Assembly: GCA_963931085.1 (NCBI GenBank) | Contig: OZ006973.1 | Location: forward strand, 1,568,053-1,632,052 | Direction: 5' to 3' | Length of the DNA stretch: 64,000 nucleotides | DNA from: an uncultured Clostridia bacterium | GTDB lineage: Bacteria; Bacillota; Clostridia; TANB77; CAG-508 | Shown here: piece after piece, positions 39,241 through 56,884 of the stretch | How the letters are laid out: each line of letters opens with the position of its first letter | How positions within the stretch are numbered: position 1 is the stretch's first letter | Notes under the pieces: generated by a model | What the model saw: only the letters and a program-made list of their open reading frames with translations | Database searches by the model: none | What the model was told of the DNA's origin: nothing | Position numbers and translations under genes: made by a program

Positions 39241-42200
39241 TTATCTTTCGTCTCCTGATTGTCTTCTATACTCTCTTCTTGATTTAGGAAGATCTCTAGT
39301 TCCTTCATCATCAAAAGTATATTCTCTCGTTTGTCTTTTATTTCTTTTTTTGTCTGTATTTGTCTTTCTTGCATTTTCAGCAACATCTAAAGCTGTATCA
39401 GCAATAATAGCTCCTTTTAAAATATCTCCAATCACTTCTGTACTCCTTTCCACAGTAGGATTTATTACAGTTTCATTTACAGTTTTTACTGTATCTACAG
39501 TCTTTGATACAGTTTCATAATGACCTTCAACGTCAACTACTGTTTTTATAATATCATCTACTTTAACTCTTTCAGTTATTCCTGGGACTAAATCAGAAAG
39601 TTTAGTCCAGAATCTATCACCAACTGCAACATATAGATTACTTAATGTATCTACATCTACTGTTCCATCATTTACATCATTTACCAACTCATCTACTGTT
39701 ATATTTTGTCTTAATACTCCAGAATCTAGCATATCTGCTGCGAAAGTACCATCTGTTAATGTTGGAGCCCTTAGTCCGGCAGTATCAGATAATCCATGTC
39801 CTCCGCTTCCAACTGAATTAAATATCGCAGTAATTTTTTCATCTCCAGATAAAGTATAAACTTCTGGCAATCTTTCTCCTCCATATACTGAATAAAATCC
39901 TGTAACCTGCTTTCCACTGTTTGAAGCCATAAGTTCATCAAGTGTTCTCGACTTATTGATAACATCATCATATACTGGCATAGTCTCTGTTTTATATGTT
40001 GTAGGTACCCATTCTTCTGTTGTTATAGTTTCAGTAGATGGAACTTCAACTTGTCTTGTTATTTTATTATGTTCTAAAATCCAATCATGAATTTTAGGTC
40101 CAATATATTTTACAGCTAATCCTTTTGCAAAACCTTTAATTACAGTAGTTCTTAATGTATTTACTTCTTTACTTGCAATAGCATGTTGCTTGTCATCTAC
40201 TGCATCTGTTTGCTCTGAAGCAATAGGACCATTATTTACTAAAGAATTTAAATTATCTCTTGCATTTTGCAAACTATTTCTTTTAGAAGTAATTGCATTT
40301 TCTACATCTATTCTATTTGAAGCTCCTGGATTTCTCCTTAAAGAATCTTCTAGTCTTCTTATCTGTATTTCAAATTCTCTTATCTGAGTATTTAATGCAT
40401 TTATTAATACTGCGTTTCTCTCTTGAGAAATAATATTTTGCTTAATATCTGCAGCTCCTGCTCTTAAGACAGCTTCATTTCCTTCTTTAGCTCTAAATAA
40501 AGCTTTAAATCTTGCTTCTATTGCATTTCTAAATGGATGTCTTACAGGATTTACACTTGCAGGATTAGGAGATGATGCTCTTAATCTTTCTGTTTCATCT
40601 TCGTCTCTTTGCCTTGCAATATCAGCAAAATAATCTCTTCTAGCTACCATTCTATGATAAACATTATTTTTATATGGAGAAGCATCTCTTCCTCTTGTAA
40701 TTAATCTATGTAACGGTTGAGCAACATTTCTTCCTATAAATCTGTATACTGGTGCAAAAACGTTTCTTACAAATATTCCGGCATTTAATACTACTCTTCC
40801 AGCATTTCTTAGTAGTCCTGTTTGTCTTGGGATATATGGCATAGTTTCACCATACTTCCCAAGTGTTGCTAAATCACTTTGCGTATATTCGTGTTGATTA
40901 AATGTATGATTTCTAGTTTCTATATATTCTTTATCATTATCATATGTATGACTTGTTCCATTATATACAGATGTATCTCCTGCATCAAATCTTGTCATTC
41001 TTTCAAGTGCAGATTTATATCCATCTAAAAGTAAGAATTTTTCATCATCTTCTCTTTCAGGATAATCTCTAATTGTTCTATATGTTATTCCACCACTTGT
41101 AGTATCAATCTCATTTGATTTAAATCTTTCAGATCTTTCTAGATACTCTCTTTCATAATCTTTATCTCCATAGAATTTAGCAAGCATATCATCTCTTCTT
41201 CTTAGATATTCGTTTTCAATTCTATCATTATCTAAAGTATAAGTTAAACTAGGATCAGATGGTATATCTATTTCTTGAGCTGTAAAATCAAATCTTTTTG
41301 AAGAAGCTCTATTTATTGCATCTTGAAGTACGGCTCTATCATAATCATCTCTTTCTACATTCTCTAAGTTTTGTGTAAATACTTCTTCGTGCCTAATAAA
41401 ATTATTTTGCCCTAAAAGCATCCATCTAAAATCATCTCGTGATGATGTAGCACGACCTTTTTTAGCATCCCATGTTAAATCAGTATTGTACCATTTTCCA
41501 TTACCATGCTCATCTTTTATTTCGACTTGATTCCATGCATGACCTGTATTATCATTTCCTGTTTCACAATTTCCTGTTACAAGTCTTGATCTTATTCCTA
41601 CTAAAGAAAGAGCATTTCTTAAAATATCAGCATATCCTGCACAAACAGTTTTTCCCTCTATAATACCTTCTTTAAGATTTCTGCACTCATTTATTCTTCT
41701 AGAATAATATAAAGCACTTGTTTTATCATCATGTCTTATTGCATCATGGTCATAAGAAATTGAATCTGCAAGTCTAGTATAAATAGTCGTAAATTTATCT
41801 AAATCTGAATCAGCTGGATTAATTCCTCTTACAACCCTATCTAATGTATCTCTAATATATATATACTCTGCTTGTGAATATGAATCTATTTGATAACTCC
41901 AATTATCAAAATTATCATCTAAAATTTGTACTCCAGAAATATTCATTCCCACATTATTCATTCTTCTTGACAAATCTCTAAGAGTAACACTATCTAGTTC
42001 TGATACATCTTTAATTTTTACTCTTACATCCTGCGGAATGACTTTTCCCGAATTTAATAAATGTTCTATCTGAGGAATTGTAAGTAATAAATTAGCATCT
42101 TGAAGATAAGATCTTGTAAAATCTGTAGAATCAATTTCTGATTCATTTTCAATCATTATTGGATTTTCTTTAATTTTTAAGTTACCTCTTATAATCTCTG

Positions 42201-44106
42201 CATCTTTTATATAATATGGAGCTTTATTCATAGACCACATTAATCTATCAACAGCATCATCTTTTGTAGTTGTATTTCTATCACCCTTAGCTATTCCTGA
42301 ATCAAAATAAATTTTCTTTAAAAACTCAAAAGATTCATCAGAAATGTCTGGTGCATTTATTATTTGGTTTCTTATTCCAGTATTATTATTTAGATAATAT
42401 ATTAAATATGGATTAGTTCTATAAAAATTCTCTACTCTTTCTATATCATTAACACCTAAATCATTACTCATTAAATTAAGTAATCCAAGTCTTCCATCAA
42501 AGTTTTCTAATCCATCTATATCATTTACTTGTGAATTAGTAATATTCACCATTACAAGATTAGAATTTACAGAAAGTTCTCTTAATATTTTTCTATCATG
42601 TAAATGCTGACCATTTATCGTAATATCATGTAATGTACATGATGGATAAATAGTACTCATAAACTGATTAAATTCACTATCAGAAATACTATTTATTTCT
42701 AAAATTGGAATAGAATCTAATCCACTAACAGAAGAGATATTTTCTGTTCTTCCACCTCTTAATATAATCTTTCTTAAAGCAGGTAATCTCTCTACATCTA
42801 CATTTATTAAGTTTATTCCTTCAAAAGAAATAGCTTCAATATTATCTGATAACTTAGTACCAAAGTTTGGTATTTGAATAGCTGAACTTGGATCTGTATT
42901 TCTAAATGCTATTGTTTGATATTCTTTTTTACCATCTATTCTATAATTATTATTTGATATTTTTGGTACTTTTGATAAATCAATATCAAAATCTTCTGCT
43001 ATATTACTTGAAATAGTTAAAGTTATTGGATAATATCTTGCATACTCGCTATTTGATTGAACTTCATAAATTTTATCTACTACTTCTTGTAAATCAACAT
43101 GACTTCCTGTTTCATTAGAAATATCTATTTTACTTAATATTTCAGGATAATATGTAGCAATTTCTTCTAACTCTATTTTTAAATCATCATAACTAGTATC
43201 AGTAACATTAATTTTAAGTTCTGGTAATTCTTTTTTTAGAGTCTCCTCTGTAATTTCATTTCCTTCAAAAATTCCAGAAAGCTCTTTACTCTTTATCTCA
43301 ACTTTTTTTCTTTCTTCAGGAACAGGTGGGATAATTTCATCTTCCTTATTTACTTTATTTTCCTCATTATTTTGTCTATCTATATATGAAAGGACACTAT
43401 CTATTGCTTTATTTATCTCTTCCCTAGGTAAAAATCTATCTGAAGATGTCTCTACCATATCTGTTTTATGTTCTGGCATATAATAAAACTCTGGATTAGA
43501 TAAGAAATTCATAAATACAGGAGTTTCATTAATATTATTATTAAAAAACTCATCCGAATCCTTTGCCAAATCTAAAGGATAGTATATATTTCCTATCTGA
43601 ATTTCATTCCATGCATCAAAATTACTATTATAAATATATTTACATGGAATTCCATTTCTTCTCATTGCTTCATAAAAAATAGAAGCAAGACCTGCAGAAT
43701 CTGTTTTATTACCAATAAGAGCAGATAAATCATATGATGCTTTATTTTTCTCTAAATCACTTCGTGGAATTTGCTGAAACATTTTATAGAAATATATAGC
43801 TTTTTCTATATTGCTCCACTCAGGATTCATTCTTCTTTCAATTTCATTAAATTCATTTATTAAATCAATAAATGCTTCTTTTGTATATGTTAATAATTTT
43901 CTTCCTGATGATTTTTCGTACTCTTGAATATCGTTATCAGGATTAATTCTTATAATACAGTCATCACTTAATTCTCTTATTAAATTTATATTTTGATTTT
44001 TAGTAGAGCTAAATTCTACTATTACTGGTGCTATACTATTAATTTCTTTTATATCTTCTACTCTGATATTTCCTTTAATACGGATTAATTTCATTTTCTT
44101 CTCCAT
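39241..44106 (-). CDS. Giant orphan protein A (1621 aa). It has a degenerate transglutaminase-like domain, leucine-rich repeats, an intact transglutaminase-like Cys-His-Asp core, and a long C-terminal region with amphipathic segments and a charged tail.
   Basis: The core reads GKTVCAGYADILRNALSLVGIRSRLVTG...GHAWNQ...WYNTDLTWD. Codon positions are Cys 41641-41643, His 41539-41541 and Asp 41479-41481. The LRR block covers about aa 425-575 (42382-42834). There is no signal peptide. The likelier start is the ATG at 44094, where GGAG lies 6 nt upstream. Confidence 0.8.
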   Translation of the reverse strand: MEKKMKLIRIKGNIRVEDIKEINSIAPVIVEFSSTKNQNINLIRELSDDCIIRINPDNDIQEYEKSSGRKLLTYTKEAFIDLINEFNEIERRMNPEWSNIEKAIYFYKMFQQIPRSDLEKNKASYDLSALIGNKTDSAGLASIFYEAMRRNGIPCKYIYNSNFDAWNEIQIGNIYYPLDLAKDSDEFFNNNINETPVFMNFLSNPEFYYMPEHKTDMVETSSDRFLPREEINKAIDSVLSYIDRQNNEENKVNKEDEIIPPVPEERKKVEIKSKELSGIFEGNEITEETLKKELPELKINVTDTSYDDLKIELEEIATYYPEILSKIDISNETGSHVDLQEVVDKIYEVQSNSEYARYYPITLTISSNIAEDFDIDLSKVPKISNNNYRIDGKKEYQTIAFRNTDPSSAIQIPNFGTKLSDNIEAISFEGINLINVDVERLPALRKIILRGGRTENISSVSGLDSIPILEINSISDSEFNQFMSTIYPSCTLHDITINGQHLHDRKILRELSVNSNLVMVNITNSQVNDIDGLENFDGRLGLLNLMSNDLGVNDIERVENFYRTNPYLIYYLNNNTGIRNQIINAPDISDESFEFLKKIYFDSGIAKGDRNTTTKDDAVDRLMWSMNKAPYYIKDAEIIRGNLKIKENPIMIENESEIDSTDFTRSYLQDANLLLTIPQIEHLLNSGKVIPQDVRVKIKDVSELDSVTLRDLSRRMNNVGMNISGVQILDDNFDNWSYQIDSYSQAEYIYIRDTLDRVVRGINPADSDLDKFTTIYTRLADSISYDHDAIRHDDKTSALYYSRRINECRNLKEGIIEGKTVCAGYADILRNALSLVGIRSRLVTGNCETGNDNTGHAWNQVEIKDEHGNGKWYNTDLTWDAKKGRATSSRDDFRWMLLGQNNFIRHEEVFTQNLENVERDDYDRAVLQDAINRASSKRFDFTAQEIDIPSDPSLTYTLDNDRIENEYLRRRDDMLAKFYGDKDYEREYLERSERFKSNEIDTTSGGITYRTIRDYPEREDDEKFLLLDGYKSALERMTRFDAGDTSVYNGTSHTYDNDKEYIETRNHTFNQHEYTQSDLATLGKYGETMPYIPRQTGLLRNAGRVVLNAGIFVRNVFAPVYRFIGRNVAQPLHRLITRGRDASPYKNNVYHRMVARRDYFADIARQRDEDETERLRASSPNPASVNPVRHPFRNAIEARFKALFRAKEGNEAVLRAGAADIKQNIISQERNAVLINALNTQIREFEIQIRRLEDSLRRNPGASNRIDVENAITSKRNSLQNARDNLNSLVNNGPIASEQTDAVDDKQHAIASKEVNTLRTTVIKGFAKGLAVKYIGPKIHDWILEHNKITRQVEVPSTETITTEEWVPTTYKTETMPVYDDVINKSRTLDELMASNSGKQVTGFYSVYGGERLPEVYTLSGDEKITAIFNSVGSGGHGLSDTAGLRAPTLTDGTFAADMLDSGVLRQNITVDELVNDVNDGTVDVDTLSNLYVAVGDRFWTKLSDLVPGITERVKVDDIIKTVVDVEGHYETVSKTVDTVKTVNETVINPTVERSTEVIGDILKGAIIADTALDVAENARKTNTDKKRNKRQTREYTFDDEGTRDLPKSRREYRRQSGDER

Positions 44107-44131: not shown

Positions 44132-44767
44132 CTATCTACCTAAAGTATCATATAATTCTAAGTTTTCTTTATGTGAATATACAGTATTAGGATTAACATT
44201 TACATCTTCTACTTTTACTCCATCGCTATCATATAAAATAGAACCATCTAAAACGACTCTCTTTAGATTTAGAAAATCTGATAAGTCTCTTATTCCATAA
44301 ATTCTTGAACTTAATAAATTTAATATTTTTGCTTTTTCAATATTAATACATTTAAAAGGAATATTTGATCCGATAATCTCTACAACTTCTAAAGGTGGAT
44401 ACTTAAATGGAATTTCTCTACATCCCTTTATTCGTAATTTCAAGTTTGGATTTACATCTTTAAAATCAATTTCATCAAAAGAACAATCTGTAAATTCTAA
44501 AGAACGTAAATTTCTATTTTTTAAAATTTTATCCACAATTTCTTGAGATATGTGGAAATCTGAGATGCCGAGAATTTCTAAAGATGGGAAAAAAGATAAC
44601 ATATCTAAGTCTATATCTGATCTGCTACCATCAAACCTTTTTCCACCTAAATTAATTTCTCTTATTTCTTGAATATCTTCTTCTGTAACATGATTAAAAT
44701 CCATTTTACATGATTTAACAGCAATTAATCTTCTTAAATCTTCACTTTTTATTTCTTCTAATTTCAT
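44132..44767 (-). CDS. Leucine-rich-repeat protein (211 aa), first gene of the giant-A operon
   Basis: LRR-like periodic leucines occur (LSFFPSLEILGISDFHIS..., NLRSLEFTDCSF..., LKRVVLDGSIL). AGGAG lies upstream of the ATG. The gene is 25 nt upstream of giant A. Confidence 0.65.
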   Translation of the reverse strand: MKLEEIKSEDLRRLIAVKSCKMDFNHVTEEDIQEIREINLGGKRFDGSRSDIDLDMLSFFPSLEILGISDFHISQEIVDKILKNRNLRSLEFTDCSFDEIDFKDVNPNLKLRIKGCREIPFKYPPLEVVEIIGSNIPFKCINIEKAKILNLLSSRIYGIRDLSDFLNLKRVVLDGSILYDSDGVKVEDVNVNPNTVYSHKENLELYDTLGR

Positions 44768-44793
44768 TTTTCTTCTCCTACAATATAATTAAT

Positions 44794-44837: not shown

Positions 44838-44846
44838 AATTAGTGC

Positions 44847-44879
44847 AAAAAAAAAAAAGACACTTTATAAAAGTGTCTT
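44847..44879 (-). terminator. Intrinsic terminator of tuf
   Basis: The stem is aagacactt (44857-44865) / aagtgtctt (44871-44879). A T-run of at least 10 follows on the minus strand. Confidence 0.8.
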
Positions 44880-44900
44880 TTCTCTATTTTAAAGAATAAA

Positions 44901-46103: not shown

Positions 46104-46161
46104 TTGAAAATTCCTCCTTTTTTTATTTTTTATTTAATTTAAATTTAATAACTAATTTAGC

Positions 46162-46198
46162 ACTTGCATTTTATAATATTTTTTCTTAAAATGCAAGT
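46162..46198 (-). other. Perfect 12-bp stem-loop in the fusA-tuf spacer (partial terminator or processing site)
   Basis: The stem is acttgcatttta (46162-46173) / taaaatgcaagt (46187-46198) with a 13-nt loop. Confidence 0.5.
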
Positions 46199-46230
46199 AT
46201 TTTAAAGAGTTTCATATTTATTTATAAATA

Positions 46231-48315
46231 TTATTCCTCTTTTTTAGCTCTAGAAGATACGATTGCTTCTAAAACTGATTTTGGAACTTCTTCATAATGA
46301 GATGGTTCCATAGAATATGTTCCTCTACCTTGAGTCTTAGAACGTAAGTCTGTTGCATATCCAAACATTTCTGATAATGGAATATTTGCTCTAATTTCTT
46401 GCATTCCATCAACATTTTCCATACCTTCCATTCTACCTCTTCTAGAGTTAACATCTCCAATAACATCTCCCATGTATTCTTCTGGAACTGTTATTTCTAC
46501 TTTCATAATTGGCTCTAAGATAACTGACTTACCTTTCTTACATCCTTCTTTAAATGCCATAGAACCAGCAATTTTGAAGGCCATTTCAGAAGAGTCAACA
46601 TCGTGGTAAGAACCATCAACTAAAGTAGCTTTAAAGTCGATAACTGGGTATCCAGCTAATATTCCACTTTCAGCAGCTTCTCTAACACCATCTTCAACTG
46701 GTTTGATATATTCTTTTGGAACAACACCACCAACGATTTTGCTCTCAAATTTAATACCAGAACCTGGCTCTAATGGTTCCATCTCTAGCCATACGTGACC
46801 ATATTGTCCACGTCCACCAGATTGACGGATGAATTTTCCTTCTACTTTAACTTTTTCTCTAATTGTTTCTTTGTAAGCAACTTGAGGTTTACCTACATTA
46901 CATTCAACTTTAAATTCTCTTTTTAATCTATCTACGATGATATCTAGGTGTAATTCACCCATACCAGCTATGATAGTTTGACCAGTTTCATGATTTGTAT
47001 AAGCTTTGAATGTTGGATCTTCTTCAGCAAGTTTTGCTAAAGCTATACCCATTTTTTCTTGAGCTGCTTTATCTTTTGGCTCAATAGCTATATCAATAAC
47101 TGGTTCTGGGAATTCCATTGATTCAAGGATTATTGGATGATCAGGATCACATAAAGTATTTCCTGTTGTAACATCTTTTAATCCAACTGCAGCTGCTATA
47201 TCACCAGCATATACTTTATCTATATCTTCTCTGTGATTAGCGTGCATTTGAAGAATTCTACCAACTCTTTCTTTTTTATCTTTACTTGAATTTAAAACTG
47301 TTGATCCTGATTCTAATGTTCCAGAATAAACTCTGAAGAAACATAATTTTCCTACATATGGATCTGTAGCAATTTTAAATGCAAGTGCAGCAAATGGTTC
47401 AGAATCTGAAGTTTTAGCTTCTGTTTCTTCTCCATCTAATGTTTCACCTTTAATATGAGCAATATCTAGTGGTGATGGCATATAATCAATTATTGCATTT
47501 AATAATTCTTGTACACCTTTATTTTTATAAGAAGAACCACAAGTTACAGGAACTATTTTGTTTGCTATTGTTCCTATTCTTAAACCTCTTTTGATTTCTT
47601 CTTCAGTGATTTCTTCACCTTCAAGATATTTCATCATTAATTCTTCGTCTTGTTCTACAGCTGCTTCAATCATTTCATTTCTGAACTTTTCAGCATCTGC
47701 TTTCATATCTTCTGGTATATCACATTCTTCAATTTCTTTTCCTAAATCATCTTTGTGAACAAATGCTCTCATTTTAATTAAGTCAACTATACCTTTGAAT
47801 TGATCTTCAGCTCCAATTGGTAATTGAATTGGAATAGCGTTAGCTTTTAATCTATTTTTTAATTGATCAACACAAAGCATAAAGTTTGCACCTGTAATAT
47901 CCATTTTGTTTACATATACCATTCTTGGTACATTATATTTATCTGCTTGTCTCCAAACAGTTTCTGTTTGAGGTTGAACACCACCTTTAGCAGCTAAAAC
48001 AGTAACTGATCCGTCAAGTACTCTTAAAGATCTTTGAACTTCTACAGTAAAGTCAACGTGACCTGGAGTATCAATTATATTAATTCTATGACCTAACCAT
48101 TCACAAGTTGTAGCAGCTGAAGTAATTGTTATACCTCTTTCTTGTTCTTGTTCCATCCAGTCCATTGTTGCAGCACCATCATGTACTTCACCAATTTTAT
48201 GAGTTTTTCCTGTATAGAATAAGATTCTCTCTGTTGTTGTTGTTTTTCCAGCATCTATATGTGCCATTATTCCTATATTTCTTGTTTTTTCTAATGGGAA
48301 TGCTCTTCCAGCCAT
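46231..48315 (-). CDS. fusA: Elongation factor G
   Basis: 694 aa with [15 protein letters not shown] and DTPGHVDF. Confidence 0.98.
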
Positions 48316-48356
48316 ATTCTTTTTTCCCCTTTCTGGTTATTCACCTAAATTATATT

Positions 48357-48851
<495 letters not shown>

Positions 48852-49000
48852 TTAAACTTAGTATTAATTTGTAATACTAAAAGGTACTCTGGAAAGATTA
48901 TTTCACTTTCCCGTAACAGTGCTACTTATATATGTACAATTTTAAAAATTGACCAACATATAATTTGCACTATTAGTAATTAAAACTAAAACTCCTAATT

Positions 49001-49414
49001 TTATTTTTTAGGTTTCTTAGCTCCATACTTAGATCTTGCTTGCATTCTATCTTTAACACCTGCAGTATCTAAAGTTCCTCTAATAATATGATATCTAACA
49101 CCTGGGATATCTTTAACCCTTCCACCTCTTATTAGAACAACGCTGTGCTCTTGTAAGTTGTGTCCTTCACCAGGAATATAAGATGTTACTTCATAACCAT
49201 TAGATAATCTAACCCTTGCTACTTTTCTTAAAGCTGAGTTTGGTTTCTTAGGTGTAACTGTTTTAACTACTGTACAAACACCTCTTTTTTGTGGAGATCT
49301 TGCATTAGTTGTAGTTTTCTTTTTTGAGTTATAACCTTTTTGAAGAGCAGGAGAATTAGATTTTGATTTACTAGTTTGTCTTCCTTTTCTTACTAATTGA
49401 TTAATTGTTGGCAT
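49001..49414 (-). CDS. rpsL: 30S ribosomal protein S12
   Basis: 137 aa with [12 protein letters not shown] and [10 protein letters not shown]. Confidence 0.98.
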
Positions 49415-49452
49415 TTTTAAAATTTCACCTCCTAATTTTATACTAAAATAAA

Positions 49453-49494
49453 TATACGCTAGCCCTTATTTCCGTAGAAATATACTAGCGTATA
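49453..49494 (-). terminator. Long bipartite hairpin between the small-protein operon and rpsL (terminator and/or rpsL 5' stem-loop)
   Basis: The outer 10-bp stem is tatacgctag (49453-49462) / ctagcgtata (49485-49494). The inner stem is tatttc/gaaata. TTTATTTT follows on the minus strand. Confidence 0.5.
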
Positions 49495-49496
49495 AT

Positions 49497-49525
49497 ATTT
49501 TATCATCTTTGTTTTTTAAAGTCAA
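49497..49525 (-). promoter_or_regulatory. Sigma-A promoter of the str operon
   Basis: The minus strand reads TTGACT (49520-49525), a 17-nt spacer, then TGaTAAAAT (hexamer 49497-49502). The -35 overlaps the stop codon of the upstream small ORF. Confidence 0.55.
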
Positions 49526-49797
49526 CATTTGTGCAAAAATAATTTAGCTATTTTATCAATTTTTTTGATTTTAATATTATTTGCAATTATCAATAATACA
49601 TCTTTTTTTATTTCATCTGATATATCATTATTTATGTACAGTTCATCATTTTCTATTTTATATTCTACAACATCACCTGTAATTGGCTTTTCCGTAGTAG
49701 ATAAAAAGAAATATTTTTTATTTTTATATAGTACATTATCCATAATCATATACTTTTTTCCATCATAAACAATTTCATCACCAATAAAAAAATCCAT
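49522..49797 (-). CDS. Small acidic/aromatic protein, paralog 3 of a three-member family (DUF1292-like pattern)
   Basis: 91 aa with the core VYDGKKYMIMDNVLYKNKKYFFL. It aligns with the ORFs at 50270..50566 and 50668..50982. Confidence 0.55.
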   Translation of the reverse strand: MDFFIGDEIVYDGKKYMIMDNVLYKNKKYFFLSTTEKPITGDVVEYKIENDELYINNDISDEIKKDVLLIIANNIKIKKIDKIAKLFLHKC

Positions 49798-49798
49798 T

Positions 49799-50215
49799 CT
49801 ATCTAGTCTCCCTTTCTTGGTTACTAATAACTTTATTTTCAGCCTCTTTTGCTAAACTTTCATATTCTTCCATGTCTATTTTTCTTTCTTCTAATCTAGC
49901 CTTTGTATCATCCCAAAAGTGTTTAGCAAACTCTGAATTATATCCTGCTTGATATGCTCCATATCCCAGAGCAGATAACGTAGCAATAATTAAAGCTTTT
50001 TTAAAACCATTAAATGACTCTTGTTTTTTCTTTGAACGATTCTCTTTTGTATATGTCGCCCTTCTCCAGTCAGATTGATTTTTATTTGTACCTACTGAGG
50101 TTATAAAAGGTTTTTCTAATTCTCTAAAATCACTACTGCTCATGTCTATTGAATCTAAAAATTTTTCAAAATCTTTATCAAATGATCCTTCATCTAATCC
50201 TGTTTTTCTTTCCAT
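49799..50215 (-). CDS. Hypothetical single-pass membrane protein
   Basis: 138 aa with a central TM (ALIIATLSALGYGAYQAGY) and charged flanks. Its stop abuts the start of the downstream small ORF. Confidence 0.5.
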   Translation of the reverse strand: MERKTGLDEGSFDKDFEKFLDSIDMSSSDFRELEKPFITSVGTNKNQSDWRRATYTKENRSKKKQESFNGFKKALIIATLSALGYGAYQAGYNSEFAKHFWDDTKARLEERKIDMEEYESLAKEAENKVISNQERETR

Positions 50216-50234
50216 TTATATTAACATCCTTTCC

Positions 50235-50265
50235 AAAGAAAAATAGGAGCATAAAACTCCTATTT
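50235..50265 (-). terminator. Internal hairpin (attenuator or terminator) after small paralog 2
   Basis: A 9-bp stem, aaataggag (50241-50249) / ctcctattt (50257-50265), is followed by TTCTTT on the minus strand. Confidence 0.4.
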
Positions 50266-50269
50266 CTTT

Positions 50270-50566
50270 TTAAACATTTGCTTTAGCAATTTTTCTATTT
50301 ATTTTATCAATTGCTATATTGCACAATTCTCCAAAGATTTTTTCATCTGTAACTTTATCAAAATATCTATCATAAACCTTATATATGAATTCAGTAGTAG
50401 AGAAACTATATTTAATATCATTTAAATTATAATTCTTATCTTCCATTTCTGACTTATTAACGATGAAATAATATTTTCTTCCTTTATATTGAAGACAATC
50501 AATTATACAAAATTCCTTTCCTTCATATGTAGTTTCAGCAAATCTTTTATCCCCTGAATTTACCAT
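50270..50566 (-). CDS. Small protein, paralog 2 (DUF1292-like pattern)
   Basis: 98 aa with the core TYEGKEFCIIDCLQYKGRKYYFIV ... EFIYKVYDRYFDKVTDEKIFGEL. Confidence 0.55.
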   Translation of the reverse strand: MVNSGDKRFAETTYEGKEFCIIDCLQYKGRKYYFIVNKSEMEDKNYNLNDIKYSFSTTEFIYKVYDRYFDKVTDEKIFGELCNIAIDKINRKIAKANV

Positions 50567-50667
50567 ACTTTTTTTGGCTCCTTTCTCAAATATTATTTTT
50601 ATCTTTCGTTTTAAAAATCTGTACTATGAAGAGAAAAGGAAGATTGTTCCTTCACTCTATATAAGCA

Positions 50668-50982
50668 TTATTTTTTCAAATTATCATATAAGCCTTTAAA
50701 ATATTTATTTTCTTGTAAAAATATTCTTTTAGTAGCTTCTTTTGACAATTCTTTATATAATTGATCATCATCTACTGTTTGATAATACTTATCTTCAACT
50801 TCATATATGAAATTAACTTCAACTTCTTTATTACCATAATCTTCAATATTATCTTTTCCTTCTTCATAAATATCTTCCATTATGTAATAATATTTTTTTC
50901 CTTTATATTCAAAGAAGTCTATTATAAAATACTCTTTTTCTCCATATTTTATTTTTACAAAATTACTATTTTTAAATTCCAT
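50668..50982 (-). CDS. Small protein, paralog 1 (DUF1292-like pattern), translationally close-coupled to giant B
   Basis: 104 aa with the core KYGEKEYFIIDFFEYKGKKYYYIM ... NFIYEVEDKYYQTVDDDQLYKEL. AAGGAG lies 8 nt before the ATG, within the 17 nt after the giant-B stop. Confidence 0.6.
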   Translation of the reverse strand: MEFKNSNFVKIKYGEKEYFIIDFFEYKGKKYYYIMEDIYEEGKDNIEDYGNKEVEVNFIYEVEDKYYQTVDDDQLYKELSKEATKRIFLQENKYFKGLYDNLKK

Positions 50983-50999
50983 ATATCTTTCTCCTTTGT

Positions 51000-53900
51000 T
51001 TATCTATCTTCTCCTTGATCACGATCTTGATCATTATTCTCTTGGTTGTCACGTTCTTGATCATTGTCTCTTTGTTCTTCTTGTCCTCTTGAAGCATTTT
51101 CTCTTCTTCTAATATCTTCACCAAAAGCAGCATTTCCCATTGTTGCTCCTAATACTACTGCTGCTGGGATAACTGAAGAATCTATTGCAATATTGAAGTC
51201 ACCAATATGACTAGCTGATTGAATTGTTCCAGAAACTGTTGGAACTGTAATTGATTGTGCTGCATTTTGTAATAAGTTATTTAAGTTACCTCTTTGAGCT
51301 AGTGCTTCTCTAGTTACATCTACCATAGATTGATATGTTGATGAATATTGTGATCCACTATTTATAGCTTGTTGTAATACTCCCATTTGATATTGCATAC
51401 TACTTACAATTTCTGGTTCAATTGTATTTTGATTAAATTGTAATATAGTATTTATAGCACCTTGGAAGTTACCAGCTTGTGCTAAAGCATCTGCTTGTTG
51501 TACTGCTGATAAATATTGAGAATTCATTTGTTCAACCATTTGGTGAACTTGAGCATCCTTTGCGAAATCCCATGCTCCACCAGCTACTTGGTTAGCAGAT
51601 ACTGTAAATGAATCATGATATCTAGCTAAAAGTCCTTGTATATTTCCATCTGTAACTGTCTTAAACGCTTCGTATGTACCCTGATCTGGAGTAGCAGTTT
51701 GACTATATGATTTTATTTGATTTAGTGCATTTTGATAGTCTTGCTCTACTTGTAAATTATTTTGATTTACCTGGTCTAGATGAGTATTATGAGCTGCATG
51801 TTCTTGGTCTAATCTAAGTTGTTCAGATGCAATTTTATTATTTTGTATCATTGCATTAGCAAAGTTAACTACTGCTGCAGTTAATGCTACATTTGCCATA
51901 ATTTGACGAGATCTTGTATCATCTCTATCAGAAGGAATAACAGTTGTTTTTTCACGTTGTGCTTTTCCTCTTGTAATTACTATTGGACCGAAATGTTTAG
52001 TTTCAGTATTTTTTTCAAGTGATTGAACCATTTCAAATTCTTGGTCTCTTGCTGTTTGTTCATCTCCTCTTCCTCTCGCTTCTCTAACCATATCATGTCT
52101 TTCTGCCATTTCTTCAATTAAATCTCTGTTATCTGGATTTGTTTTTGCAAATAATTTGAAGAAAGGAAATGTTGGTCCATAATTATCTCTATTTCTACTT
52201 TTATTAAACATAGCTCTTTCAACAGCTTTATATTGTTCTACTACTTTTCTTTCTGTTAAAGATTCAGCAGAAATATCTCTACTAGAATAAGCATTTCTTT
52301 CTTGTCTCATTGCTTGGTAATTAGCAATCATTCGATCTAATTGTTCTCTTGTAAATACGCCTGCATTAATTAAATCATTTTCCATTCCCTCGATTTCTGC
52401 TATTGTTGCCCTATCACAGTATGTCTTATCACTCAATAATAATTTAGCATCTTCTGCATTAAATTGTCTTCCATTTACTTGAACTCTATTTCCAACTGTA
52501 TTTGCTACTGCTTCTCTAGCCTCTGTCATTCTTTGATCTATTTCTTCTGCTTTTTGTTGATTTACCGCTCTATAGTTATCAGAGAATTCAACTCTATCTG
52601 AAGTCTCTTCCCCTAAAACTTCCATAACAGCTTGCATGTATAAATCGTTTAATTTATATTGTCTTGCTGTACTTTCATGAACTAATCCATACATATTCTG
52701 TCCATTTGGTCCAGGCTCACCATTTAATAATACATTCCATTCATCTGGATGGTTATCACGTAAGTCTCTTAAATTAGCACACATTTCTTGGAATTGATTT
52801 TCTGTTTTTTTATTTCCGATTGCATTAATTGCTTTAGCTCCTAATTTTACTGGAAGCATTACAGCAGTAACAGGTAATCCAAGCCATCCAATACCTCCAT
52901 CCTTTATAGATGTTGGTCCCAATTTTGCATGAGCTAAGTTTCTAAGTGTAATTGCTCTAGATGTTGCTTGAGGTCCATCATAAGATGTATCAGCTACAAT
53001 TCTCCAGAATCCTCTAGTTGTCAAATCATGTTTATGTCCATCATCGTCATCATCGTGTCCATGTCCATCATCGTCATCATCATGTCCATGTCCGTCATCG
53101 TCATCATCATGTCCATGTCCATCATCGTCATCATCATGTCCATGTCCATCATCGTCATCATCGTGTCCATGTCCATCATCGTCATCATCGTGTCCATGTC
53201 CATCATCGTCATCATCATGTCCATGTCCATCATCGTCATCATCATGTCCATGTCCGTCATCGTCATCATCGTGTCCATGTCCATCATCGTCATCATCATG
53301 TCCATGTCCATCATCATCATGTGTACGGTCAACAGGAACTCTTTCTGTTACTCTTTCTCTAGTTAATGATTCTAACTCGGAAATTATATTGTTTAACTGT
53401 TCTAATCTTCTACGCTCTGCATCTGTTAAAGGAGCACGATTTTGATTCCCCTCTAATTGTTGTCTTTCTTCTTCTAATCTAGCAATTTGTTCTCTTATTG
53501 AATTTAATCTATCTTGTAATGTATTTACATCTTCATTTACAGTAACATTTTGAGGTGACTCATTTAATAAATCAATTGCAGCTGAATAGCTACTTTCACT
53601 TCTTCTTAATTCTTCTAATTGCCTATCTATTTCTTCTCTTCTTTGAGCCTCTCTATCTTGAGTATTATCTCCTCTTTGATTAATTTCTCTTAATCCTTCT
53701 CTTAATTCTTGGAATTCATCTATTTCATTATCATCTAATTGATTTTGAATTGCATGTTCATCTTCATTTTCTATTCCTTCTAATTCTGGAACTACTCTAC
53801 CTAAAACTTGTGCCATCATTATTCTTAATTCTGCTTTTCTTGCAGGAGTAGTTGAATCATTATTAAATTCTTCTCTTAATTCTTGGAATCTATCAATTTC

Positions 53901-56531
53901 GTTATCATCTAATTGATTTTGAATTGCATGCTCGTCTTCGTTTTCTATTCCATCTAATTCTGGAACTTCTCTACCTAAAATTTGTGACATCCTGTATCTT
54001 ATTGCTTGTGCTCTTATTCTATCTTCTGGAGATAATTCAGGAGAATCATTCGTATTTTCTCCGTTTGCTCTGGCTAGAAGTGCATCTCTTTCTGCTCTAT
54101 ACTCTTCTAACCTTCTATCTACTTCTGAAGCTTCTACATATGGTCTTTCATCAGATGTTCTACTTAATAAATCTCTAAGTTCTGGTAAAACATCATTTGC
54201 TCTTTGAATATCTGCTTCTGATACCTGTTCTGTCTCTCTTTCTGTTGTAATTGTGTATTGATATGTAGACATTAACATAGTTAAACGTCTCTTTGTATCA
54301 TCTGATACATTTTCTAAGCTATTTATATATTCAGCTTCTTGTTCTGGAGTACGAGTAATATCTGCATTTATTAGATTGTCTCTTTCTCTTGTTAAAGTAT
54401 CAATTTCAGCTTGCATTCCATCAAGTTCCGCTCTTTCTTCCTCTGTAAGTTCAGGTTGATTTCTTGTAACTCTTACAAGTCTTATTGGAGTAACAACTCC
54501 ATCATCCATTCCTTCAGCTCCATCTCTTACTTCAACATCATAATTATTAATATTTTCATTAATCTCTTCTTCAGACATATTCATTTCTTGTCTTAATATA
54601 GCTCTTACTAAATCTTGTCCTTGTAGTCTTCCATTTCCATATGTCTCAATATAAAGATTATCCATTCCTTCAACAGGTTCTCTTGTCTCTGTTTCTCTTG
54701 ATCCTGGTTCAATTGTTCTCGTTCTAACTACTATACTTCTTGAAAGAGGTCCATCATCATATAAACCATTTGCGTCTTCTACAGTCTCCATAGAATATTC
54801 ATTTATTGTTCTATCTATTTCTTCGTCTGATATTCCATTTTGTCTTAACACTGTTCTTATAAAATCTTCATCTGATATTCTAGGAAAATTATTTATATCT
54901 AAATCAGTTTGGACTTCTTCTCTAATAGTTCTAGGTGACGTTTCTATTTCATTTCTTCTTGCTTCTAAAGCATTTCTTCTCTCTTCAATTAAATTATCTA
55001 ATTCTCTAGTTCTATTATTTACTATTTCTTGGTATTGTCTTGAATTTTGAAGATCTAACAAACGAGTTCTTTCATCTGTAGATAAATCACTTCTAGATAA
55101 TTCTTGATTAATTCTATCTTGGTCATATGATAAATCTTCTGGTAAGTTAGAATTACTATTAGCTTCTCTTTCAGCTCTTTGTCTATTTATCTCTTGATAT
55201 CTTCTAGCATCTTCTCTACTTATTGTAGTAAGTACTGGTTCTCTTCTAGTTTGATTTGCTAAAACACCTTCATAATAATTAATTCTATCTTGAATAGTTT
55301 GTCTTGTAACAACTTCAATTTCTCTATTCTCATATTCTTGTTCAGTTTCTTGAGAAGAATCACCTGTAGTACCTTCTGCTGATGTATCTGTAGCTTCTTG
55401 TTCTGGTTCTTCTGCTTGTCTTCTTTCTTCTTCTCTTTCTTCTTCAACTTGTCTATCAACATCTTTTGATAAACCTTGAATTAATCTGTTTACAACAGCT
55501 TTATCTTCATCTGATAATTCATCAAGTCCAAGCATATTTTGAAGTCTAACAAGCATTAATCTTTTATCTCTTATTGTTCCAGAATATGCTCTAAAGTTTC
55601 CATCTCTATCATATCTAAATCCAACTGTTGAACTAAGCATTGATTGAAGATCTGTTTCTTGTACTCTTGAAACTAGAACACCTGCTCTTACACCAAAATT
55701 ATCAGTTCTTCTTTTTTCTTCAGGAGATGTTGTTCTATCTACTTCTCCTATCTCTTGAATTCTTCTATGTAAATCAGCATAATTTTCATATCTAACTTCG
55801 CCTTCACTTGCTGTTAATTCTTCTCTTACTCTATCATTTTCAGTTCTATCATTTGTAGCTATATCTCTTGCAATATCGTTTCTCATTCTTGGTAAAAATG
55901 ATTCTACATAAGTTCTTACTTCTGGAGTTAATCTATCTGTTTGCAATAAATCATTTATTCTATTAGCAATTACTGTTCTATTACGTACAGATCCTGTAAC
56001 ACTTACTCTTCCTTCTTCGTCCATTACGAAGTTTACAGGTCTATTTGTTAAAGGATATTCATATGTTCCATTATTATTATCTATACCATTTTCTCTATTC
56101 CCAGATCTTTCTGCCATTTCAGATAAATTAGTAACTAATTCATCATATTCTCTATTTGCAGTCTCTTGAACTCTTTCTGCCCTTGAAACAGCTTCATCTA
56201 ATGATCTAAGTAATGTGTCTATTGTATCATCTATTCTATTATCTTCATCTGTTCTTTCTTCAGTACTTGTTCTTCTTCTATCTCTTAAATCTCTTAAAGA
56301 TCTTGCTAAATCTCTTTTACCATTAGTTGGTCCTAATGCTGTAATTTGATTATCTGCTCCCACTTTAAATTTTACTTCTCTTGGGAAAGTGCTTCTATAA
56401 GAAGTAGCTTCAATTTTTGTAACTGAATTGTTTAAACTTCTTCTTATTTCTCCTATGTCACTTGCTCTTCCTACTGTTGATATATAACCTCTAACTGCTG
56501 CTAATAATCTTTCATCGGAAATATTTGCCAT
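51000..56531 (-). CDS. Giant orphan protein B (1843 aa). It has an Arg/Glu/Asp-rich repetitive N-terminal 1070 aa, a DDDDDGHGH tandem array, hydrophobic segments, a Gln/Asn/Ala-rich helical C-region and an acidic tail.
   Basis: This is a long uninterrupted ORF. AGGAGG lies 8-9 nt before the ATG at 56531, and a strong promoter lies upstream. There is no signal peptide. Internal repeats are described in the findings. Confidence 0.8.
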   Translation of the reverse strand: MANISDERLLAAVRGYISTVGRASDIGEIRRSLNNSVTKIEATSYRSTFPREVKFKVGADNQITALGPTNGKRDLARSLRDLRDRRRTSTEERTDEDNRIDDTIDTLLRSLDEAVSRAERVQETANREYDELVTNLSEMAERSGNRENGIDNNNGTYEYPLTNRPVNFVMDEEGRVSVTGSVRNRTVIANRINDLLQTDRLTPEVRTYVESFLPRMRNDIARDIATNDRTENDRVREELTASEGEVRYENYADLHRRIQEIGEVDRTTSPEEKRRTDNFGVRAGVLVSRVQETDLQSMLSSTVGFRYDRDGNFRAYSGTIRDKRLMLVRLQNMLGLDELSDEDKAVVNRLIQGLSKDVDRQVEEEREEERRQAEEPEQEATDTSAEGTTGDSSQETEQEYENREIEVVTRQTIQDRINYYEGVLANQTRREPVLTTISREDARRYQEINRQRAEREANSNSNLPEDLSYDQDRINQELSRSDLSTDERTRLLDLQNSRQYQEIVNNRTRELDNLIEERRNALEARRNEIETSPRTIREEVQTDLDINNFPRISDEDFIRTVLRQNGISDEEIDRTINEYSMETVEDANGLYDDGPLSRSIVVRTRTIEPGSRETETREPVEGMDNLYIETYGNGRLQGQDLVRAILRQEMNMSEEEINENINNYDVEVRDGAEGMDDGVVTPIRLVRVTRNQPELTEEERAELDGMQAEIDTLTRERDNLINADITRTPEQEAEYINSLENVSDDTKRRLTMLMSTYQYTITTERETEQVSEADIQRANDVLPELRDLLSRTSDERPYVEASEVDRRLEEYRAERDALLARANGENTNDSPELSPEDRIRAQAIRYRMSQILGREVPELDGIENEDEHAIQNQLDDNEIDRFQELREEFNNDSTTPARKAELRIMMAQVLGRVVPELEGIENEDEHAIQNQLDDNEIDEFQELREGLREINQRGDNTQDREAQRREEIDRQLEELRRSESSYSAAIDLLNESPQNVTVNEDVNTLQDRLNSIREQIARLEEERQQLEGNQNRAPLTDAERRRLEQLNNIISELESLTRERVTERVPVDRTHDDDGHGHDDDDDGHGHDDDDDGHGHDDDDDGHGHDDDDDGHGHDDDDDGHGHDDDDDGHGHDDDDDGHGHDDDDDGHGHDDDDDGHGHDDDDDGHKHDLTTRGFWRIVADTSYDGPQATSRAITLRNLAHAKLGPTSIKDGGIGWLGLPVTAVMLPVKLGAKAINAIGNKKTENQFQEMCANLRDLRDNHPDEWNVLLNGEPGPNGQNMYGLVHESTARQYKLNDLYMQAVMEVLGEETSDRVEFSDNYRAVNQQKAEEIDQRMTEAREAVANTVGNRVQVNGRQFNAEDAKLLLSDKTYCDRATIAEIEGMENDLINAGVFTREQLDRMIANYQAMRQERNAYSSRDISAESLTERKVVEQYKAVERAMFNKSRNRDNYGPTFPFFKLFAKTNPDNRDLIEEMAERHDMVREARGRGDEQTARDQEFEMVQSLEKNTETKHFGPIVITRGKAQREKTTVIPSDRDDTRSRQIMANVALTAAVVNFANAMIQNNKIASEQLRLDQEHAAHNTHLDQVNQNNLQVEQDYQNALNQIKSYSQTATPDQGTYEAFKTVTDGNIQGLLARYHDSFTVSANQVAGGAWDFAKDAQVHQMVEQMNSQYLSAVQQADALAQAGNFQGAINTILQFNQNTIEPEIVSSMQYQMGVLQQAINSGSQYSSTYQSMVDVTREALAQRGNLNNLLQNAAQSITVPTVSGTIQSASHIGDFNIAIDSSVIPAAVVLGATMGNAAFGEDIRRRENASRGQEEQRDNDQERDNQENNDQDRDQGEDR
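53034..53321 (-). repeat. In-frame 27-bp tandem repeat, 10 full units plus truncated ends, encoding (DDDDDGHGH)n
   Basis: Units start at 53040 and recur every 27 bp to 53309. The copies differ only at CAC/CAT and GAT/GAC third positions. Confidence 0.95.
53697..53989 (-). repeat. Tandem duplication with a 174-bp period inside giant B. About 119 bp of each copy is highly similar.
   Basis: Copy 1 is 53697-53815 and copy 2 is 53871-53989. They encode VPELEGIENEDEHAIQNQLDDNEIDEFQELRE and VPELDGIENEDEHAIQNQLDDNEIDRFQELRE. Confidence 0.85.
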
Positions 56532-56567
56532 ATTTCTTTTTCCTCCTCACAATAAATCACTAACTCC

Positions 56568-56610
56568 ATTATACCAATATTGCAACATTTTTTCAATATT
56601 TATGTAAACT
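56568..56610 (-). promoter_or_regulatory. Strong sigma-A-type promoter with an upstream TTTACATAAA dyad (giant-B operon)
   Basis: The minus strand reads AGTTTACATAAATATTGAAA, a 17-nt spacer, then TGgTATAAT. The -35 is at 56591-56596 and the -10 at 56568-56573. Confidence 0.65.
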
Positions 56611-56884
56611 TTTTGTTAGATAATTCTCCTTTATATCATAATTAATTTGATTTTAACAATAAAATATATTTTTTTCAACTTTTTTTCAAAATTTATTTTA
56701 TTTTTAATCTATTCGTCATAATATTGTAATATATGATTTTTTTATTAAGAGTATATCCTATAAAATCTTTTTTTATGACAATGCAATATTAATAATTTTT
56801 TTTAATTTCACTTTGCAAAGTTATTAATCATTGTTAATATTTTATAATATTATGTTAACTCTTGTAAAGTTAATAATTTTAATA

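Follow-up and report, generated by a model that had tools for sequence, protein, structure and literature searches.

What does a bacterium with a small genome gain from a protein of 1843 amino acids (aa) that belongs to no characterised family? The question is raised by a 64,000-nucleotide (nt) stretch of contig OZ006973.1 (assembly GCA_963931085.1, positions 1,568,053 to 1,632,052) from an uncultured Clostridia bacterium, referred to here as the window, in which one very long open reading frame (ORF) encodes giant protein B. The original prediction, made from the DNA letters, described B as an extremely charged orphan with internal repeats, and suggested either a highly expressed membrane-associated scaffold or a tail-anchored protein. 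Our analysis indicates that B represents a new family, confined to a small set of spore-forming gut Clostridia, none of them cultured. As to its function, a membrane-associated scaffold is the most economical reading, and one that we hold tentatively.

The size and the extreme charge of B are as first described. In aa 1 to 1070, glutamate accounts for 14.1% of residues, arginine for 13.2%, aspartate for 8.5% (aspartate plus glutamate, 22.6%) and lysine for 0.9%, with a net charge of -91. The following 100 residues (aa 1071 to 1170), an array of Asp/His repeats, include 54 aspartates and 23 histidines (54% Asp, 23% His, 21% Gly). The last 673 residues carry far less charge than the N-terminal part, and aa 1560 to 1800 are rich in glutamine (13.7%), alanine (12%) and asparagine (9.1%), with 12% charged residues. 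Over the whole chain of 1843 aa the net charge is -168, glutamine stands at 6.1% compared with 1.9% in the remaining ORFs of the window (an enrichment of about threefold), and cysteine is nearly missing (2 of 1843 residues).

The most unusual feature of B, on which the original prediction was silent, is the replacement of lysine by arginine. B has 34 lysines (1.8%) against 187 arginines, an R/(K+R) ratio of 0.85; the other ORFs of the window have a pooled ratio of 0.25, mostly 0.13 to 0.45 in single ORFs, and about 11% lysine. The avoidance is strongest in the N-terminal 1170 aa. Lysine depletion in aa 1 to 1070 has a binomial P of about 5e-65, and aa 357 to 1166 contain 2 lysines and 91 arginines. 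The bias is old, to judge from the N-terminal halves of the orthologues described below, where lysine-to-arginine counts are 4:72 in P0010, 15:45 in P0012 and 8:47 in P0014, at loci of about 31 to 32% GC; four of the ten N-terminal lysines are invariant among the aligned full-length orthologues. The small proteins of the same operon and p846, a relative of B encoded nearby, are lysine-rich, with 16% lysine and 0 to 1% arginine in the 104-aa and 91-aa proteins. These counts indicate that selection acts on basic side-chain chemistry in B, against the strong mutational bias of an AT-rich genome. Lysine avoidance could provide an escape from lysine-directed cross-linking, acylation or proteolysis. 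Alternatively, it is possible that arginine is favoured for its stronger multivalent contacts in mixed-charge sequence; Arg-rich mixed-charge sequences make cohesive multivalent contacts that their lysine versions do not, and in mixed-charge domains an excess of negative charge abolishes condensation (bioRxiv 10.1101/771592).

That B is a genuine gene under constraint is indicated by its ratio of nonsynonymous to synonymous substitution (dN/dS), which is 0.24 to 0.26 against two diverged strains (loci L007 and L008; dS of about 0.65 in the flanking trmFO) and about 0.13 in the more constrained aa 400 to 600. The frame is intact in more than 20 assemblies and extends for 5.5 kb in a genome of 26% GC, where stop codons are frequent. 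The first 400 aa change rapidly (dN 0.11 to 0.23), with patchy dS and a mosaic of alleles between strains. Across positions 44132 to 56531, compared with L007 and L008, dS is about 0.6 to 0.7 in trmFO, p846 and a 211-aa ORF and 0.35 in a 138-aa ORF, and it drops to 0 to 0.1 in the part of B after about residue 600 and in the 104-aa and 98-aa ORFs, rpsL, rpsG, fusA and tuf. This mosaic most likely reflects recent recombination across the segment, and patches of alleles are also seen in the protein alignment. Codon bias in highly expressed genes may be part of the cause of the low dS.

That leaves the ancestry of B. In agreement with the original prediction, none of the sequence or fold searches assigned it to a known family. 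The whole protein matched nothing in Pfam at E <= 0.01 or in NCBIfam at E <= 0.1, and its two halves matched nothing in PHROGs or PADLOC at E <= 0.01. The best phmmer match among PDB sequences had E = 0.084 over 40 residues. When two AlphaFold models of low to moderate confidence were compared with the PDB by Foldseek, the best E values were 0.52 and 1.9, with template modelling (TM) scores of at most 0.17; against viral structures the best E was 0.078, with a TM-score of about 0.1. Given the confidence of the models, the comparison with the PDB is a weak test. A tblastn search of 50,697 phage records and of plasmids gave no match, and a viral-contig scan and two metagenome-contig scans contained no relatives of B.

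The word orphan nevertheless holds only in the sense that there is no characterised family, since B has a small orthologous family at a fixed site and a paralogue 1.7 kb away. An exhaustive HMMER search of 1.84 billion cluster representatives with a profile of aa 1 to 540 recovered five proteins, all of them orthologues: P0007 and P0010, which are close, and P0012 (946 aa), P0013 (145 aa) and P0014 (a 373-aa fragment), which are distant. Word-indexed searches, whether started from full B, from its last 673 aa or from a family profile stripped of linkers, recovered near-identical proteins and fragments only, and in a scan of GTDB genomes one species-level metagenome-assembled genome, labelled uncultured Clostridia bacterium, carried B. 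Orthologues range from 946 to 1878 aa, and all lie between trmFO and small ORFs that are accompanied by rpsL and rpsG. P0010, 45% identical to B, occupies this locus, as do the more distant P0012 and P0014. Because every relative holds the same position, the synteny indicates that B is vertically inherited and an old resident of its lineage. Horizontal acquisition was considered and rejected, given the conserved synteny and a native codon usage (AGA for 169 of the 187 arginine codons).

The paralogue, p846, is encoded upstream of trmFO and matches nothing in Pfam or NCBIfam. It shares three collinear BLASTP matches with P0012, over a hydrophobic segment together with the motif GKK..KEL..FKRLD (E = 6e-12), at the C-terminal end (E = 1e-4) and in an N-terminal module (E = 0.011). 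Profile comparison relates the N terminus of p846 to the third N-terminal module of B, M3 (E = 5.7e-4); when the p846 and B alignments themselves were compared as profiles, the match did not reach significance. Because P0012 is intermediate between them and because the module profiles agree, we take B and p846 to be distant paralogues flanking trmFO. Between strains p846 evolves fast (dN/dS 0.41 to 0.44). An internal repeat of p846 that was suspected by eye was not confirmed by BLAST. Members of the lineage-specific B/p846 family, as defined in this analysis, combine an N-terminal module of about 70 aa, made of a beta-hairpin and helix, with a low-complexity spacer of acidic character and a hydrophobic GxGL..A.V segment that leads to G-(K/N)-KK, and their genes flank trmFO.

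The architecture of B proved to be modular, much as had been proposed. The three V-x-F modules near the N terminus show no mutual similarity detectable by BLAST, but profile-profile comparison of the orthologue alignments finds them homologous (M2 versus M3, E = 2.6e-7, probability 93%; M1 versus M3, E = 2.2e-5; M1 versus M2, E = 0.065) and, at about 70 aa, longer than first stated. In the AlphaFold prediction each consists of a beta-hairpin and two helices, the first short and the second long. M1 is found in P0012, P0013 and P0014, and M2 is missing from P0012; P0014 has three modules, P0012 two and p846 one. The block that follows them, aa 403 to 540, is the best conserved of the family (match to P0012, E = 8e-25) and is modelled as helices with a predicted local distance difference test (pLDDT) score of 78 to 90. 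By eye, P0012 also shows a counterpart of the second conserved block (aa 700 to 830), reading NLVNAEVTRSQEEE...LKTMLVSYQIEL...TPELESLLETT. The two proposed LRQ modules are real yet weaker by BLASTP, and in P0010 three other, unrelated repeats, each about 70 aa long, take the place of the cassette that they form. The 58-codon tandem duplication is firmer (BLASTP E = 1e-11 and 2e-7), and P0010 keeps both copies.

Further along the chain, the helical sub-domain at aa 1320 to 1420 gave no Foldseek match. A Fourier test for heptads (period 3.5, z > 2.5) gave a signal at aa 57 to 168, 1429 to 1484, 1569 to 1624 and 1709 to 1764. We rejected a classical long coiled-coil rod of the SMC, Scy or FilP type for lack of sustained heptad periodicity. 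The arm that follows the first hydrophobic segment is about 150 residues long in P0012 compared with about 600 in B, and in P0009, an allele from a European Nucleotide Archive (ENA) metagenome, the N-terminal 1100 aa are the same as in B and the C-terminal half is different. The C-terminal arm thus appears, from this allele, to be exchangeable as a module.

Between the two halves lies the Asp/His array, which is 27 to 126 aa long in 20 near-identical proteins (3 to about 14 units), every time a multiple of 9. In other lineages the same site is occupied by DDDEK repeats (P0010), by DDDDDGKGH (P0009) or by PSVEPTVEPTKSE, a Pro/Glu/Thr-type repeat, followed by poly-Glu (P0012), and in all three of these proteins histidine is reduced or lost. 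It follows from the length variation and from the swaps for other acidic or Pro-rich repeats that length and exact sequence are free and that the acidic, extended character is kept. What the family maintains, as far as the alignments tell, is an extended acidic spacer and not histidine.

All three hydrophobic segments of the original prediction, and the acidic tail ending in GEDR, are present as quoted. To assess them we used simple scales, Kyte-Doolittle hydropathy and summed Hessa energy. The summed Hessa energies of the three segments are +4 to +6.6 kcal/mol. Genuine transmembrane helices of the window, in a YitT-family protein and a Gate-domain protein, have Kyte-Doolittle values of 1.9 to 2.8 and Hessa energies of -3 to +3. 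Segment 1 is conserved in P0010 and, with the G-(K/N)-KK that follows, is the sole feature of the C-terminal half common to B, P0012 and p846; at this position P0012 and p846 are linked by the BLASTP match of E = 6e-12, and the likeness of B to both was seen by eye. In P0009 the C-terminal half begins at this position with a strongly hydrophobic stretch of 57 residues with a Kyte-Doolittle value of 2.27, long enough for a two-helix hairpin. Segment 2 reaches a Kyte-Doolittle value of 1.11 in P0010 and includes charged residues there, and is therefore not a conserved transmembrane helix. A tail anchor, the second suggestion of the original prediction, is unlikely because segment 3 is weak (Kyte-Doolittle 1.62, Hessa +6.5 kcal/mol, and a Kyte-Doolittle value of only 1.29 in P0010) and is followed by a 38-residue tail of which 52% is charged.

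Likewise, the claim that B lacks a signal peptide was borne out by the hydropathy scan. There is none because no 19-residue window before aa 1208 exceeds a Kyte-Doolittle value of 1.0, and the N terminus (MANISDERLLAAVRGYISTVGRASDIGEIRR) is conserved and predicted to be helical. A sortase signal was rejected: the only match to LPxT[GANS], LPVTA at aa 1219, is 620 residues away from the C terminus, P0010 has LPISI there, and the tail is acidic. For WXG100 or LXG proteins there was no Pfam match, no L-x-G in the first 120 residues and a lone W-x-G, inside segment 1.

The near-consensus expression signals proposed for B were found, both promoter and AGGAGG, and are conserved between orthologues. 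Indeed, conservation reaches further in the upstream DNA than in the protein. The proteins of loci L005 and L006 are 25 to 33% identical to B over the N-terminal region, and all six orthologous upstream regions share promoter P2, with most of its -35 and -10 positions invariant in 6 of 6, the near-palindrome ATCAAATTAATTATGAT, the block AAGTTTACATAA and, ahead of the ribosome-binding site, GAGTTAGTGAT. A 20-nt element, GTTWACATAAATATTGAAAA, which includes the -35 hexamer, occurs in exactly two copies in the window, with no other even at up to 3 mismatches. One copy precedes B (56590-56609, minus strand) and the other p846 (60861-60880, minus strand), and each is followed by 17 nt and TGnTATAAT. 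This sharing suggests a common regulator or a duplicated promoter. L007, L008 and L002 conserve the element at P1, L005 keeps part of it and L006 lacks it. Factors may bind at GTTWACATAAATA and at the near-palindrome of P2. Both promoters are of the housekeeping sigma-70 type, and the leader RNA has no unusual structure (z-score +0.84). Weak support for fairly high expression also comes from the codon-adaptation index (reference tuf, fusA, rpsL and rpsG), by which B ranks 12th of 48 ORFs.

How might these features fit together? From them we infer a cytoplasmic location, anchoring at the membrane and a role as scaffold or tether. Specifically, B may be a modular, polyanionic scaffold of the cytoplasm that is fastened to the membrane by a hydrophobic hairpin in mid-chain and the basic patch after it, a picture that seems to us possible but still short of probable. 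We imagine that the whole chain would be made in the cytoplasm and stay there. Segment 1 (aa 1212 to 1239) and the amphipathic basic stretch AKAINAIGNKK would form a hairpin in or on the inner face of the membrane, with both arms inside. A hairpin or in-plane anchor leaves both flanks on one side of the membrane and thus the arms cytoplasmic, and an anchor of this topology fits the lack of an export signal and the basic residues after segment 1. From the anchor, the Asp/His array, as a length-variable polyanionic spacer, together with about 700 residues of Arg/Glu-rich helical modules, would project an N-terminal head made up of the three homologous modules and the invariant TTISREDARRY block, and it is at this head that partners would bind. 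Association, whether of B with itself or with a partner, would fall to the Gln/Asn/Ala-rich C-terminal arm. B would probably act jointly with the downstream small proteins and with its paralogue p846, which has the same promoter element. The scaffold at the membrane thus survives from the original prediction as the leading guess, and the expression signals are strong, but the tail anchor does not survive.

Several observations weigh against this picture. With Kyte-Doolittle values of 1.47 to 1.66, the segments of B are too weak, on the scales used, for classical transmembrane helices, and they could instead be buried helices of a soluble protein. AlphaFold confidence is low to moderate, with a mean pLDDT of 47 in the C-terminal half and of 66 in the N-terminal 540 aa (predicted TM-score, 0.35). 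In aa 440 to 1070 the Fourier test at period 3.5 found no heptad periodicity anywhere, and the region includes 19 prolines and 20 glycines. Finally, a plain cytoplasmic scaffold explains neither the avoidance of lysine nor the fast-changing N terminus (dN 0.11 to 0.23).

In an alternative reading, B is soluble, cytoplasmic and polyanionic, makes no contact with the membrane, keeps its three hydrophobic stretches buried as helices of the C-terminal helical domain, and serves as a scaffold, a self-associating matrix or a buffer of charge or cations. Hydrophobic segments that fall short of the genuine transmembrane helices of the window, the charged residues of segment 2 in P0010 and the lack of a signal peptide would all be expected of such a protein, and Arg-rich mixed-charge sequence promotes cohesion (bioRxiv 10.1101/771592). 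On the other hand, the same work found that excess negative charge abolishes condensation (bioRxiv 10.1101/771592), and B carries a charge of -168. A soluble protein would also leave unexplained why segment 1 and its basic patch are conserved and common to p846 and P0012, and why P0009 has an unmistakably membrane-like hairpin at the segment 1 site. We consider this alternative unlikely, though one that deserves to be taken seriously.

The rapid and mosaic change of the N-terminal 400 aa between strains speaks for another alternative, in which B is a structural protein of the cell surface or spore envelope that leaves by a non-classical route or is deposited by the mother cell. Lysine avoidance and variable repeats would then reflect exposure to proteases, cross-linking, the host or phage. 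In-frame variable repeat arrays, such as that of B, are typical of surface proteins, and secreted filament proteins have a composition like that of the helical, Gln/Asn/Ala-rich sequence of B; the near absence of cysteine (2 of 1843) points the same way. Genes for SpoIIGA and a sporulation-type sigma factor are present in the organism, and P2 is preceded, at a distance of about 34 nt, by a Spo0A-box-like TGACGAA (TGTCGAA in L002). That heptamer is kept in L007, L008 and L002 only, and heptamers of the TGACGAA/TGTCGAA type number only 10 in the whole window. Giant protein A, a neighbour that combines a transglutaminase-like core with sequence that by eye resembles leucine-rich repeats, likewise lacks a signal peptide. 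Yet B has no signal peptide and no LPXTG, WXG or LXG motif, both of its promoters are of the housekeeping and not the mother-cell type, no secretion system is encoded in the 64-kb window, and a chain with a charge of -168 would be hard to export without a dedicated machine. Export seems doubtful to us, to about the same degree as a purely soluble B.

Protein A also suggests a more specific role, in which B is its substrate or partner. The Gln-rich arm would donate glutamines to Lys-rich partners such as the small proteins and p846, and lysine would have been purged from B to prevent self-cross-linking. A matches Transglut_core (E = 1e-13), with its motifs intact by eye; B is rich in glutamine, above all in aa 1560 to 1800, and poor in lysine (1.8%); the 104-aa and 91-aa proteins, with their abundant lysine, are at the opposite extreme; and A and B are 7 kb apart in all strains examined. 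However, A and B belong to different transcription units, domains with a transglutaminase core more often act as proteases or have an activity that is not known, and the activity of A on B is conjecture. Moreover, lysine is avoided most strongly in the N-terminal 1170 aa and not in the Gln-rich arm. Such a relation between A and B is, in our view, distinctly improbable.

One can also envision B mainly as a store of divalent cations or metal, with (DDDDDGHGH)11 binding Zn, Ni or Ca. Tracts rich in His, Asp and Gly are metal binders, as in the His/Asp-rich tails of SlyD and Hpn, and the array of B is dense in both Asp and His (54 and 23 of 100 residues). Against a dedicated metal store, histidine is not conserved in the arrays of P0010, P0009 and P0012, the copy number drifts from 3 to 14 between near-identical strains, and the array accounts for just 5% of B, the remaining 1740 residues of which are conserved. 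We would regard this as a long shot. A more speculative proposal, to which we give no better chance, joins B, p846, the Lys-rich small proteins and A into a lineage-specific covalent scaffold, an ordered, cross-linked layer at the membrane or the spore surface. In that case the recoding of lysine to arginine would leave only glutamines and a few conserved lysines to an isopeptide-forming enzyme, and the layer would be a bacterial counterpart of the involucrin/loricrin cornified envelope. That B is a chance or decaying frame, as its low-complexity segments and lack of annotated homologues might suggest, is effectively refuted by the dN/dS of 0.25, the conserved promoter and ribosome-binding site, the in-frame array changes and the frame that is intact in more than 20 assemblies, and can practically be set aside.

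The layout of B has parallels among known proteins. ZipA, the FtsK linker, EzrA and MapZ are membrane-tethered division or organiser proteins with long linkers. Like B, they combine a globular or partner-binding end with a hydrophobic element for the membrane and, as tether, a long sequence that is charged or of low complexity, and like B they have housekeeping promoters and no signal peptide. B differs in having no sequence or fold similarity to them, in an anchor that is central and weak and not an N-terminal helix, in being 2 to 5 times larger, and in lying outside the division gene cluster, which is found at 13.9 to 20.8 kb of the window. The magnetosome protein MamJ, a probable connector between a membrane structure and a filament, resembles B in its strongly acidic character, its length-variable tandem repeats and its restriction to a lineage. 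B, however, shows no homology to MamJ and contains hydrophobic segments itself, and the window has no gene for a magnetosome or another organelle. Phage tape-measure proteins share with B great length, richness in helix and in Gln, Asn and Ala, internal hydrophobic segments and tandem duplications. We rejected this identity because there was no match among PHROGs, phage records, viral contigs or viral folds, and because B sits at a fixed site between trmFO and rpsL with no phage genes nearby.

Two further comparisons concern the lysine avoidance. The Arg-enriched mixed-charge domains of nuclear speckles are, like B, dense in Arg and Asp/Glu and avoid lysine, and in them a change of Arg to Lys abolishes cohesion (bioRxiv 10.1101/771592). 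Unlike them, B is bacterial, its charged region is predicted to be helical and modular and not disordered, and the net charge of aa 1 to 1070 is far from balanced, at -91. The catalytic chains of AB toxins (ricin A, cholera toxin A1 and pertussis toxin S1) show an Arg-over-Lys bias as in B. Hazes and Read, writing in 1997, reportedly read the lysine depletion of the toxins as avoidance of lysine-targeted ubiquitination. B, by contrast, has neither a toxin domain nor a B subunit nor an export signal, and nothing suggests that it comes into contact with a eukaryotic cytosol.

Table 1. Features of giant protein B and its surroundings, in positions of the 64-kb window
Feature	Position	Strand	Remarks
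Giant protein B ORF	51000..56531	-	ATG start, 1843 aa plus stop codon
Module M1 (aa 46-150)	56082..56396	-	AlphaFold strands 54-57 and 63-66, helices 69-88 and 95-147, pLDDT 68-89
Module M2 (aa 160-245)	55797..56054	-	AlphaFold strands 155-179, helices 182-196 and 203-242
Module M3 (aa 298-375)	55407..55640	-	AlphaFold strands 305-315, helices 320-334 and 341-374
Top conserved family block (aa 403-540), motif PVLTTISREDARRYQEINRQRA	54912..55325	-	Near invariant between B and P0010
Two LRQ..S.EEI..IN.Y modules (aa 551-597, 635-681)	54489..54881	-	Variable cassette; self-BLAST (BLASTP) E = 0.004, 40% identity
Second conserved block (aa 700-830), LINADITR...LMSTYQYTI...LPELRDLLSRTSDE	54042..54434	-	Rich in invariant positions in alignment
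58-codon tandem duplication (aa 838-953)	53673..54020	-	aa 840-887 versus 898-945, 68-94% identity
Asp/His array (DDDDDGHGH, 11 units; aa 1071-1170)	53022..53321	-	Tandem Repeats Finder: 27-nt unit x11, 95% identity
Hydrophobic segment 1 and basic patch (aa 1212-1242: GIGWLGLPVTAVMLPVKLGAKAINAIGNKK)	52806..52898	-	Kyte-Doolittle 1.47; candidate membrane hairpin or amphipathic anchor
Helical sub-domain (aa 1320-1420)	52272..52574	-	pLDDT 78-88, sole confidently modelled part of C-terminal half
Hydrophobic segment 2 (aa 1543-1563)	51843..51905	-	Kyte-Doolittle 1.66
Gln/Asn/Ala-rich helical region (aa 1564-1780)	51192..51842	-	Helical prediction at low confidence
Hydrophobic segment 3 (aa 1781-1805) and charged tail (aa 1806-1843, GEDR end)	51003..51191	-	Kyte-Doolittle 1.62; tail 52% charged
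AGGAGG ribosome-binding site of B	56542..56547	-	10 nt before ATG; GAGGA core in all orthologues
Promoter P1: element GTTTACATAAATA, TTGAAA, 17 nt, TGgTATAAT	56568..56609	-	11/12 consensus positions, best promoter-like site in region; TTGAAA-TGgTATAAT at 56596-56568
Promoter P2: TTGAAA, 17 nt, TGtTAAAAT, overlapping near-palindrome ATCAAATTAATTATGAT	56635..56678	-	Promoter scan; P2 itself at 56678-56650
p846 (846 aa), distant paralogue upstream of trmFO	58293..60833	-	True start probably ATG at 60806
Four small ORFs downstream of B (104, 98, 91, 138 aa)	49522..50982	-	17 nt from B stop to next start
211-aa ORF between tuf and A	44132..44767	-	Leucine-rich-repeat-like by eye, no family match, dN/dS 0.52-0.53
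Giant protein A (1621 aa)	39241..44106	-	Transglut_core E = 1e-13
Cohesin-domain protein, 254 aa	23019-23783	-	
murA, ftsQ, two DUF881 genes, ftsA, ftsZ, spoIIGA, sporulation-type sigma factor	12047-20775	-	Division/sporulation cluster

The neighbours of B are trmFO, rpsL, rpsG, fusA and tuf; the window also holds plsX, rnc and the str operon, varies between 21 and 34% GC, and has no tRNA gene and no Rfam family at the gathering threshold. Contigs that encode the same protein are up to 1.8 Mb long. The organism, seen only in metagenomes, is a spore-forming member of the Clostridia with a small genome. The cohesin-domain protein suggests that it may have cellulosome-type components.

Between B and the small ORFs downstream no minus-strand terminator was found. 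The small-ORF set stands beside B in L002, L003, L005, L007 and L008, which are all the lineages with enough contig. The 104-, 98- and 91-aa proteins look mutually similar by eye. The 104-aa ORF matches DUF1292 (PF06949) at 17.4 bits, E = 0.0086, below the gathering score of 24 bits, and no other small ORF matched this family, which is uncharacterised in the papers found. The 98-aa ORF has a sub-threshold match to DUF6673, and the 138-aa protein (49799-50215, minus strand) has one weak hydrophobic helix.

Giant protein A, separated from B by the str operon, has by eye a leucine-rich-repeat-like N-terminal half and intact Cys/His/Asp motifs (GKTVCAGYA, GHAWNQV and NTDLTWD). It includes an Arg-rich, Lys-poor stretch at about aa 900 to 1200, with an overall R/(K+R) of 0.56, and shows no BLASTP similarity to B. 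In L007 and L008 two extra ORFs (171 and 246 aa) that are not in the window lie between tuf and the 211-aa gene. A (SGDER), B (QGEDR; 51003-51116, minus strand) and the 138-aa protein all end in a Gly/Ala-rich hydrophobic helix, about 40 to 45 highly charged residues and a terminal arginine; the 138-aa protein ends in ERETR here, in EGEDR in L002 (7245-7766) and in NGGER in L005 (5652-5996). The three may have a common C-terminal signal, although the statistical weight of this pattern is low.

On present evidence B is a well-described unknown, not a mechanism. If it is expressed as its promoters suggest, a clade with genomes of about 1.8 Mb spends about 0.3% of its coding capacity on this one protein, which has no relatives elsewhere in 1.84 billion sequence clusters. 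The purge of lysine is a clear signature of selection on side-chain chemistry and is directly testable. B, p846, the small ORFs and A make up a compact syntenic set of co-evolving unknown proteins, which can be studied as one system.

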